Shown one piece after another: positions 42,089 through 51,946 of a stretch of 64,000 nucleotides of DNA. How positions within the stretch are numbered: position 1 is the stretch's first letter; each line of letters opens with the position of its first letter. Location: the NCBI RefSeq assembly GCF_003334305.1, contig NZ_QOWS01000019.1. One strand, given 5' to 3'. Both the position numbers and the translations under genes were made by a program. The notes under the pieces are model-generated. The model saw nothing but the letters and a program-made list of their open reading frames with translations, did no database searches and was not told where the DNA came from. This DNA comes from Escherichia coli. GTDB lineage: Bacteria; Pseudomonadota; Gammaproteobacteria; Enterobacterales; Enterobacteriaceae.

Positions 42089-43330
42089 ATGAAGTGGCAG
42101 GGACGGGCAATATTACTTCCCGGAATACCACTGTGGTTAATCATGCTGGGAAGCATTGTGTTTATTACGGCATTTCTGATGTTCATTATTGTTGGTACCT
42201 ATAGCCGCCGTGTTAATGTCAGTGGTGAGGTCACAACCTGGCCAAGAGCTGTCAATATATATTCAGGTGTACAGGGATTTGTTGTCAGGCAGTTTGTTCA
42301 TGAAGGGCAGTTGATAAAAAAAGGGGATCCTGTTTATCTGATTGACATCAGTAAAAGTACACGCAATGGTATTGTCACTGATAATCATCGCCGGGATATA
42401 GAAAACCAGCTGGTTCGTGTGGACAACATTATTTCCCGTCTGGAAGAAAGTAAAAAAATAACGCTAGATACCCTGGAAAAACAACGTCTGCAATACACAG
42501 ATGCGTTCCGTCGCTCATCAGACATTATACAGCGTGCAGAGGAAGGGATAAAAATAATGAAAAATAATATGGAGAATTACAGATACTATCAGTCAAAAGG
42601 ACTGATTAATAAAGATCAATTAACTAACCAAGTTGCATTATATTATCAACAACAAAACAACCTTCTCAGTCTGAGCGGACAAAATGAACAAAATGCCCTG
42701 CAGATAACCACTCTGGAGAGTCAGATTCAGACTCAGGCAGCAGATTTTGATAATCGTATCTATCAGATGGAACTGCAACGACTCGAATTGCAGAAAGAAC
42801 TGGTTAACACTGATGTGGAAGGCGAAATCATTATCCGGGCGTTGTCTGACGGGAAAGTTGACTCCCTGAGTGTCACTGTAGGGCAAATGGTCAATACCGG
42901 AGACAGCCTTCTGCAGGTTATTCCTGAGAACATTGAAAACTATTATCTTATTCTCTGGGTCCCGAATGATGCTGTTCCTTATATTTCGGCTGGTGACAAA
43001 GTGAATATTCGTTATGAAGCCTTCCCCTCAGAAAAATTTGGGCAGTTCTCTGCTACGGTTAAAACTATATCCAGGACTCCTGCGTCAACACAGGAAATGT
43101 TGACCTATAAGGGAGCACCTCAAAATACGCCGGGTGCCTCTGTTCCCTGGTATAAAGTCATTGCGACGCCTGAAAAGCAGATAATCAGGTATGACGAAAA
43201 ATACCTCCCTCTGGAAAATGGAATGAAAGCCGAAAGTACACTATTTCTGGAAAAAAGGCGTATTTACCAGTGGATGCTTTCTCCTTTCTATGACATGAAA
43301 CACAGTGCAACAGGACCGATCAATGACTAA
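42089..43330 (+). CDS. cvaA: CvaA, colicin V secretion membrane-fusion protein (HlyD family)
   Basis: Start set at [10 protein letters not shown] to give 413 aa; the ORF is open from 42056; N-terminal membrane anchor and coiled-coil. Confidence 0.9.
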
Positions 43331-45419
43331 CAGGAATTTCAGACAAATTATAAATCTGCTTGATTTGCGCTGGCAACGTCGTGTTCCGGTTATTCATCAG
43401 ACGGAGACCGCTGAATGTGGACTGGCCTGCCTAGCAATGATATGCGGTCATTTTGGTAAGAATATTGACCTGATATATCTTCGCCGGAAGTTTAATCTCT
43501 CTGCCCGTGGAGCAACCCTTGCAGGAATCAATGGAATAGCGGAGCAACTGGGGATGGCCACCCGGGCTCTTTCACTGGAGTTGGATGAACTTCGAGTCCT
43601 CAAAACGCCGTGTATTCTCCACTGGGATTTCAGTCACTTCGTCGTTCTGGTCAGCGTAAAGCGTAACCGTTATGTACTGCATGATCCGGCCAGGGGCATA
43701 AGATATATCAGCCGGGAGGAAATGAGCCGATATTTTACAGGCGTTGCACTTGAGGTCTGGCCCGGAAGTGAATTCCAGTCGGAAACCCTGCAGACCCGCA
43801 TAAGTCTTCGTTCACTGATTAACAGTATTTACGGTATTAAAAGAACGCTGGCGAAAATTTTCTGTCTGTCAGTTGTAATTGAAGCAATCAATCTGCTAAT
43901 GCCGGTGGGGACACAGCTGGTTATGGATCATGCTATTCCTGCGGGGGACAGAGGGCTACTGACGCTAATTTCTGCTGCTCTTATGTTTTTTATATTACTC
44001 AAAGCTGCAACGAGTACGCTGCGCGCATGGTCTTCACTGGTTATGAGCACGCTCATCAATGTACAGTGGCAGTCGGGGCTGTTCGATCATCTTCTCAGAC
44101 TACCGCTGGCGTTTTTTGAACGCCGAAAATTAGGTGATATCCAGTCACGTTTTGACTCCCTTGACACATTGAGGGCCACATTTACCACCAGTGTGATCGG
44201 GTTCATAATGGACAGCATTATGGTTGTCGGTGTTTGTGTGATGATGCTGTTATACGGAGGATATCTCACCTGGATAGTTCTCTGCTTTACCACAATTTAC
44301 ATTTTTATTCGTCTGGTGACATACGGCAATTACCGACAGATATCAGAAGAATGTCTTGTCAGGGAGGCCCGTGCCGCCTCCTATTTTATGGAAACATTAT
44401 ATGGTATTGCCACGGTAAAAATCCAGGGGATGGTCGGAATTCGGGGGGCACACTGGCTTAATATGAAAATAGATGCGATAAATTCGGGTATTAAGCTAAC
44501 CAGGATGGATTTGCTCTTCGGAGGAATAAATACCTTTGTTACCGCCTGTGATCAGATTGTAATTTTATGGCTGGGAGCAGGCCTTGTGATCGATAATCAG
44601 ATGACAATAGGAATGTTTGTAGCGTTTAGTTCTTTTCGTGGGCAGTTTTCGGAAAGAGTTGCCTCTCTGACCAGTTTTCTTCTTCAGCTAAGAATAATGA
44701 GTCTGCACAATGAGCGCATTGCAGATATTGCATTACATGAAAAGGAGGAAAAGAAACCTGAAATTGAAATCGTTGCTGATATGGGGCCAATATCCCTGGA
44801 AACCAATGGTTTAAGCTATCGTTATGACAGTCAGTCAGCACCGATATTCAGTGCTCTGAGTTTATCTGTAGCTCCGGGGGAAAGTGTGGCTATAACTGGT
44901 GCTTCCGGTGCGGGAAAAACCACATTAATGAAAGTACTATGTGGACTATTTGAACCTGATAGCGGGAGGGTACTGATAAATGGTATAGATATACGCCAAA
45001 TTGGAATAAATAATTATCACCGGATGATAGCCTGTGTTATGCAGGATGACCGGCTATTTTCAGGCTCAATTCGTGAAAATATCTGTGGTTTTGCAGAGGA
45101 AATGGATGAAGAGTGGATGGTAGAATGTGCCAGAGCAAGTCATATTCATGATGTTATAATGAATATGCCAATGGGATATGAAACATTAATAGGTGAACTT
45201 GGGGAAGGTCTTTCTGGCGGTCAAAAACAGCGTATATTTATTGCACGAGCCTTATACCGGAAACCAGGAATATTATTTATGGATGAGGCAACCAGTGCTC
45301 TTGATTCAGAGAGTGAACATTTCGTGAATGTTGCCATAAAAAACATGAATATCACCAGGGTAATTATTGCACACAGAGAAACAACGTTGAGAACTGTTGA
45401 TAGAGTTATTTCTATTTAA
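43323..45419 (+). CDS. cvaB: CvaB, ABC exporter with N-terminal C39 peptidase domain
   Basis: Peptidase cysteine motif [13 protein letters not shown], Walker [19 protein letters not shown] signature; 698 aa from MTNRNF; overlaps the cvaA end. Confidence 0.9.
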
Positions 45420-45588
45420 ACCATAGAGGAATTACAAGCGTATGAGGAATATTTCTTCCTGTTATAATTCCTCGTTATGCTCAGATATCTGTTGGAGGTG
45501 GAATGGAAGATAGACAATCCACCAAGAAGAAATATCATTCTGTGTGGATTGTCCAATAACTGTTCTTTCTTATATTAAATAATACTAT

Positions 45589-51877: not shown

Positions 51878-51918
51878 TCGGTATCTCCTTCATCCGCTGA
51901 GGAAAACAAATGAATTAA

Positions 51919-51946
51919 CTGCTTACGTATGTGGATACATATACAG
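51919..51946. promoter_or_regulatory. Candidate overlapping LexA (SOS) boxes in the colicin Ia promoter
   Basis: Minus-strand CTGTATATGTATCCACATACGTAAGCAG lies 40-70 bp upstream of the cia start; CTG/CAG-flanked AT-rich palindromes resemble the dual SOS boxes of colicin promoters, though one half-site ends CAC. Confidence 0.45.

Follow-up and report, generated by a model that had tools for sequence, protein, structure and literature searches.

The colicin V and colicin Ia determinants on this DNA very probably both respond to iron through Fur, with only colicin Ia being controlled in addition by DNA damage through LexA, in a region that is standard for pECOS88-type plasmids. The stretch analysed (hereafter the window) comprises 64 kb of Escherichia coli DNA (assembly GCF_003334305.1, contig NZ_QOWS01000019.1). 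Its positions 41800-52300 (10.5 kb) are 100% identical to many E. coli and Salmonella ColV plasmids, including pECOS88, and positions 14078-64000 (49.9 kb) are collinear with pECOS88 at 99.9% identity. The locus corresponds to the usual pairing of colicin V with colicin Ia found on pECOS88/pS88-type IncF ColV virulence plasmids, and everything of substance about it is already known and ordinary. The colicin V block and several neighboring genes are flanked by diverged direct repeats of IncI-type (pColIa/IncI) backbone (the yacA/yacB and DUF6404 segments). Six bacteriocin genes, all of them real and intact, are encoded at the following positions of the window:

42056-43330, plus strand: cvaA, membrane fusion protein (HlyD family) of the colicin V exporter; open reading frame from TTG at 42056, with an ATG at 42089
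43323-45419, plus strand: cvaB, colicin V ABC exporter with peptidase domain; 8-nt overlap with the end of cvaA
45589-45900, minus strand: cvaC, colicin V (microcin V) precursor, 103 aa; double-glycine leader MRTLTLNELDSVSGG
45878-46114, minus strand: cvi, colicin V immunity protein, 78 aa; 23-nt overlap with the start of cvaC
49640-49975, plus strand: immunity gene for colicin Ia, encoding 111 aa; convergent with cia; pECOS88 annotation "colicin 1A immunity protein"
49997-51877, minus strand: cia, colicin Ia, 626 aa

An earlier note on this DNA had listed both colicin V and colicin Ia with its immunity protein, and the open reading frames and the pECOS88 annotation agree with this assignment. 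All six genes are named in that annotation, whose record is identical across 41800-52300. The ATG of cvaA at 42089, which the earlier note had taken as the start, is presumably also the published start of the 413-aa protein. A peptidase-containing ABC exporter and an HlyD-family adaptor are encoded together, as is characteristic of colicin V systems: CvaB matches the profiles TIGR03796 (2.8e-144) and TIGR01193 (2.6e-98) and CvaA matches TIGR01843 (5.5e-30), in each case over the full length and below the equivalog cut-offs. In pECOS88, cvaB is annotated with 100% identity to the AMRFinder reference, CvaA appears as "HlyD family secretion protein", and the cvaC call in the identical stretch is likewise at 100% identity. 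CvaC, Cvi, and the Ia immunity protein are not covered by any NCBIfam model; the identities of these three products were taken from the identical annotated pECOS88 record, and that of colicin Ia from the solved structure. The N-terminus of CvaC reads MRTLTLNELDSVSGG/AS, as in small precursors with a double-glycine leader, and cvi lies immediately 5' of and overlaps cvaC in an operon that converges on cvaAB, which is the colicin V arrangement. Residues 23-624 of the cia product align with the solved structure of colicin Ia (1CII chain A, 1268 bits) across the translocation, receptor-binding, and channel domains, and the NCBIfam search with this protein returned a spurious SMC match only. The stop codons of cia and the immunity gene are 22 nt apart with no open reading frame between them. 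With an Ia-type immunity gene 3' of cia on the other strand and no lysis gene, the cia/immunity locus has the organization of a group B colicin Ia; Ib loci carry a different immunity gene of 115 aa.

The regulatory elements upstream of these genes are:

41721 to 41750: predicted cvaA promoter, ATGACA at 41721, N18, TACCAT ending at 41750
41736-41754, minus strand: Fur box upstream of cvaA, GAGAATGGTAATCATTATC, 17/19, 302-320 nt 5' of the TTG start; putative function
46161-46189, minus strand: predicted cvi-cvaC promoter, -35 TTGACT (46189-46184), 17-nt spacer, -10 TATCGT (46166-46161)
46163-46181, minus strand: Fur box of the cvi promoter, GTTAACGATAATCATTATC, 17/19, including CGATAATGATTATCG and covering the spacer and -10
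49540-49573, plus strand: predicted Ia immunity promoter, GTGACA, N18, TATTAT; speculative
49555-49573: Fur-like 19-mer at the Ia immunity promoter, 16/19, weaker, overlapping the predicted promoter; speculative
51929-51948, minus strand: single LexA (SOS) box TACTGTATATGTATCCACAT, directly 3' of the cia -10; left half perfect consensus, right half CAC
51951-51979, minus strand: cia promoter, -35 TTGACA (51979-51974), 17-nt spacer, -10 TAAATT (51956-51951)
51988-52006, minus strand: Fur box of the cia promoter, GTTAATGATAATCACTATC, 17/19, 8 nt 5' of the -35

Fur boxes were searched with the 19-bp consensus GATAATGATAATCATTATC, counting mismatches across the whole 64 kb. Thirteen matches with at most three mismatches were observed against 0.02 expected, and only four positions matched with at most two. 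Three of these lie at the cvaA, cvi, and cia promoters and the fourth (40081-40099) is found 5' of a plasmid DAHP synthase gene. At all three bacteriocin promoters the close match overlaps or abuts promoter elements, which on sequence grounds identifies them as putative Fur boxes, and the upstream regions of both colicin V operons thus each carry a candidate box with 17/19 agreement. The palindromic Fur-like box that had been described earlier at the cvi-cvaC promoter is borne out as a candidate site: CGATAATGATTATCG is present once in the window (46162-46176), within the 17/19 match at 46163-46181. Every bacteriocin Fur site also has an additional 19-mer match at a 6-nt shift with four to five mismatches; at cvi it covers 46157-46175 and at cia 51982-52000, both with four mismatches, the latter ending within 3 nt of the -35. 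Such shifted second matches fit the view of Fur sites as hexamer arrays. At cvaA, the box overlaps the -10 of a promoter whose exact position is predicted. In 355 records the region upstream of cvaA shares at least 99% identity, so its conservation gives no information on which bases matter. The cvaA box lies about 300 nt 5' of the start codon, a distance that we count against the regulation model presented below. Neither this box (41736-41754) nor the one at cia (51988-52006) had been reported in the earlier note. The weaker Fur-like site over the predicted Ia immunity promoter might possibly make immunity iron-responsive as well.

The presence of a Fur box at cia bears directly on the proposal that the two bacteriocins belong to different stress regulons. 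On the gene strand, the region upstream of cia reads ...GTTAATGATAATCACTATC attaaatc TTGACA tgccattttctccttaa TAAATT aa TACTGTATATGTATCCACAT acgtaagcagttaa...GGAG...ATG, with one LexA box 3' of the -10 and a Fur box 5' of the -35, which is the layout of a colicin Ia promoter. The closest characterized relative is the colicin Ib promoter Pcib of pCol1B9_SL1344, whose expression is induced upon iron chelation with DTPA as well as upon mitomycin C treatment and is highest when the two are combined (PMC3879352, PMC4675545). Pcib possesses one LexA site 3' of the -10 and a Fur site 5' of the -35, making it a "double-locked" promoter (PMC3879352, PMC4675545); according to one of the two papers, ColIa and ColIb were the only colicins reported at that time to be under both Fur and LexA. 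From the Fur box to the ATG, only 2 nt differ between the two promoters. The Fur box GTTAATGATAATCACTATC, the -35, and the -10 of Pcib are identical to those of cia and its LexA box occupies the same place; going from Pcib to cia, CAT in the LexA box becomes CAC, and an A just 5' of the ribosome binding site becomes C. The plasmids differ in what surrounds this segment: the structural gene is Ib in pCol1B9_SL1344 and Ia, with a different immunity gene, in the window, and the upstream neighbor is yagA at Pcib but an exonuclease gene at cia, homology beginning a few nt 5' of the Fur box. As the cia Fur box is identical to that of the iron-responsive Pcib, the two bacteriocin systems of the window would share the iron signal. 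Their regulons overlap, and the earlier assignment to separate regulons was wrong in its main point. It is therefore very improbable that colicin V responds to Fur only and colicin Ia to LexA only, with the weapons split over two stress signals and the CAC half-site loosening SOS repression. This reading has in its favor that cvi does have a Fur box and cia a LexA box and that the right half-site at cia is non-consensus, but it is contradicted by the 17/19 Fur box 8 nt 5' of the cia -35, shared with Pcib, and by the reference promoters discussed below, which have CAT rather than CAG in this half-site.

The operator of cia is one LexA box and not two overlapping ones. The upstream region includes CTGTATATGTATCCAC, i.e., CTG-N10-CAC, within the 20-mer TACTGTATATGTATCCACAT. 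We scored this site with a LexA position matrix based on a set of 25 E. coli SOS boxes; the matrix and heterology-index values are approximate. With a score of 13.96 and a heterology index of about 9.7, TACTGTATATGTATCCACAT is the third best site in the window and falls at the lowest end of the scores of genuine sites (13.3-27). The window contains three hits with scores of at least 13.9 compared to 0.33 expected, and about 28% of simulated windows yield a single hit of that score by chance; the case for LexA thus rests on the position of the box and on the literature, not on its score. A search for CTGT-N9-CAG gave no match at the cia promoter, as expected for a half-site reading CAC, and the matrix scan revealed no LexA-like site near the cvaA or cvi promoters. 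The earlier description of overlapping LexA palindromes holds insofar as a LexA operator is present at cia; the overlap does not. A second overlapping box was considered and rejected, since the register ending in the downstream CAG scores -8.5 with a heterology index of 22-24, and the dual operator composed of two 16-bp CTG-N10-CAG-like boxes with about 1 bp overlap is absent from cia.

CTG and this downstream CAG are nevertheless inverted with respect to each other and 28 nt apart end to end, compared to 31 nt in the dual boxes of group A colicins. One could accordingly imagine two LexA dimers, each held by one good outer half-site (CTGTAT... and ...AAGCAG), on a compressed version of the group A dual SOS box. 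We regard this as very improbable: in addition to the poor second register, the spacing is 3 nt below that of the dual boxes, a single LexA site was counted in Pcib (PMC3879352, PMC4675545), and the sequence between the CTG and CAG motifs varies among natural alleles (ATACG, GTATG, GTATA).

The right half-site of the single box invites the question of how CAC compares to other promoters of this family. We aligned the cia promoter with those of five other plasmids, which carry colicin Ia, colicin Ib, or the promoter alone, and with pCol1B9_SL1344. The IncI/IncK-type colicin Ia and Ib promoters compared all read CAT in the right half-site, the CAT version of the LexA-box 20-mer being TACTGTATATGTATCCATAT. 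Exact matches to the 64-nt operator region were counted among 1262 plasmid records with this promoter: the CAC 64-mer occurs in 113 and the CAT 64-mer in 473 of the 1262, while the remaining records differ from the counted 64-mers in at least one position and represent other backgrounds outside the counts. A natural CAG allele was considered and rejected, as the CAG version of the commonest 64-mer occurs in none of the 1262 records. Because the references have CAT and no record has this CAG 64-mer, a weak right half-site appears ancestral to the Ia/Ib family, and on the promoters compared its departure from consensus is a family trait. With about 100 records containing the whole ColV-Ia block, CAC probably represents the one-base allele of this plasmid lineage. 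The earlier note had correctly reported the CAC half-site, also in that it departs from consensus; its suggestion that SOS repression may thereby be weakened is not supported, and the comparison with reference Ia/Ib promoters that it had proposed leads to CAT, not CAG, as the relevant alternative.

The stronger version of this suggestion holds that the T-to-C exchange weakens or abolishes LexA binding at the only SOS box, leaving cia mainly or solely under Fur and co-expressed with colicin V. The exchange does affect the last, conserved position of the CAG half-site in the only box available, and CAC has become fixed in one lineage of plasmids, as seen from the 113 exact 64-mers. CAC half-sites are tolerated, however, in ColE1-type dual operators, where the second box has GTG (equivalent to CAC) in one half. 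C and T furthermore score equally at this position in the LexA matrices used here, a weak argument since neither base is present there in the input sites and the matrices thus cannot separate them. Moreover, CAT is equally non-consensus at that base, yet this allele is SOS-inducible (PMC3879352/PMC4675545). We thus judge a loss of LexA control at cia quite improbable. It is also rather unlikely, though conceivable from the sequences, that the CAC allele, as a marker of the ColV-Ia lineage, alters LexA affinity and shifts the control of colicin Ia toward the iron signal of colicin V in ExPEC/APEC.

We therefore return to the reading in which Fur acts on both toxins and LexA on colicin Ia alone. 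As long as iron is present, Fur-Fe2+ would be expected on the three strong boxes: over the -10 of the predicted promoter at cvaA, over the promoter spacer and -10 at cvi-cvaC, and just 5' of the -35 at cia, from where it would probably spread onto the -35. LexA would occupy the single SOS box just 3' of the cia -10. Iron starvation would then release both colicin V operons, the one for toxin and immunity and the one for the exporter, as well as, in part, cia; DNA damage would likewise release cia partially, and only both together would allow full expression of colicin Ia ("double locking"). Production of colicin V should be insensitive to SOS, since no LexA-like site occurs close to its promoters. 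For colicin V, PMC6071977 states, with reference to Chehade & Braun 1988 and to Boyer & Tai 1998, that Fur represses both operons at high iron. For colicin Ia, we infer that the Pcib results carry over by analogy to the CAC allele. Both toxins would enter their targets through the Fur-regulated receptor Cir, so that production could be timed to the display of the receptor by the targets; colicins Ia and Ib use CirA, itself Fur-repressed, as their receptor (PMC3879352/PMC4675545), and PMC6071977 names Cir as the receptor of colicin V.

In a 2025 survey, 66% of MccV plasmids paired microcin V with a colicin targeting an iron receptor (PMC12546727). Fur sites were found at most such bacteriocins and LexA boxes at nearly all colicin genes (PMC12546727). 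The two weapons of the window would accordingly be placed on overlapping rather than separate stress circuits, both being iron-limitation weapons aimed at Cir, and this fits the published picture of virulence plasmids that combine siderophore genes with bacteriocins targeting iron receptors (PMC12546727). Beyond correct annotation the result matters little, and the CAC/CAT polymorphism poses a small question on the tuning of SOS repression.

Compared to known systems, the region has close counterparts at every level. In group A colicins (E1, K, E2-E9), the LexA operator is situated directly 3' of the -10 of the colicin gene, as it is at cia; these colicins, however, have dual overlapping SOS boxes, whereas cia has one usable box, a Fur box as a second lock, and no lysis gene. 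No difference was detected between the colicin V genes of the window and the determinant known from ColV plasmids, which comprises the same four genes in the same convergent cvaAB/cvi-cvaC layout, here with Fur boxes at both promoters. The microcin V/colicin Ia co-integrate plasmids of Jeziorowski & Gordon 2007, as far as they are described where PMC2995468 quotes them, do not differ from the window and combine both toxins on one conjugative plasmid in the same way, with the colicin V block and several further genes enclosed by the diverged backbone repeats. Finally, pECOS88 (pS88, NC_011747.1) of E. coli S88 and other ColV or ColV-Ia IncF virulence plasmids show no notable difference to the window and carry the same genes in the same order.

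About 50 nt ahead of a DAHP synthase gene carried by the plasmid, the window contains a Fur box that matches the consensus at 17 of 19 positions (40081-40099).

38997-40031, minus strand: DAHP synthase gene, adjoining iroBCDEN

The product of this gene obtained its best NCBIfam E-value with the AroH model, but it stayed below the cut-off for AroH; the general DAHP synthase models were passed at their own cut-offs. Taken together, the Fur box and the iroBCDEN neighbourhood suggest that chorismate supply for catecholate siderophores is iron-regulated. Further Fur-consensus matches, with three mismatches, are a pair at 28166-28190, approximately 450 nt upstream of iroB (whose position was taken from collinearity with pECOS88, the ColV plasmid of E. 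coli S88), and a site at 25960-25978, downstream of iss and with no obvious gene.

A Fur-like 19-mer (16/19, 49555-49573) also overlaps the predicted -10 element of the colicin Ia immunity promoter, and a second copy is located at 40981-40999. In pRM7190-2, another Ia locus compared, this 19-mer differs by one base. Colicin Ia immunity might be iron-responsive.

The colicin V block is flanked by diverged direct repeats of IncI-type backbone (90-99% identity). In addition to DUF6404 and yacB/yacA, the repeats include a hypothetical gene and the promoter region of the Ia immunity gene.

40271-41559: left repeat copy
48932-49615 and 53110-53618: counterpart of the left copy

The immunity gene, cia and the gene for the exonuclease are all absent from the left copy, in which yacB is also without its 5' part. 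Between the colicin V and colicin Ia loci, the stretch 46233-47586 resembles decayed sugar-metabolism genes.

46233-46676 and 46648-47052: Gfo/Idh/MocA-type oxidoreductase, broken into two ORFs
47039-47323: SemiSWEET transporter, intact
47320-47586: FAD-oxidoreductase, short fragment

Plasmid pMS7163B (IncK2/Z) retains the full Ia/Ib promoter at 2601-2733, with its Fur and LexA boxes and the start codon, and its PLSDB annotation contains no colicin gene downstream; this could reflect a deletion remnant or an annotation gap.

Outside cia, a partial LexA-like 20-mer, TACTACGTATATACACAGTA (53520-53539; score 12.3 with an approximate SOS-box matrix), directly precedes the yacA-yacB toxin-antitoxin operon, but is probably not a LexA site, because CTG is missing from its left half. 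At 4018-4037, a good LexA-like box, CACTGTTTATGGATACAGGT (CTGT-N8-ACAG), precedes the start of a tyrosine recombinase ORF by about 25 nt.

3253-3993, minus strand: tyrosine recombinase ORF, 246 aa
4676-5584, minus strand: mig-14, adjoining the recombinase and LexA-like box region

The LexA-like box ahead of the recombinase ORF recalls SOS-controlled integron integrases.
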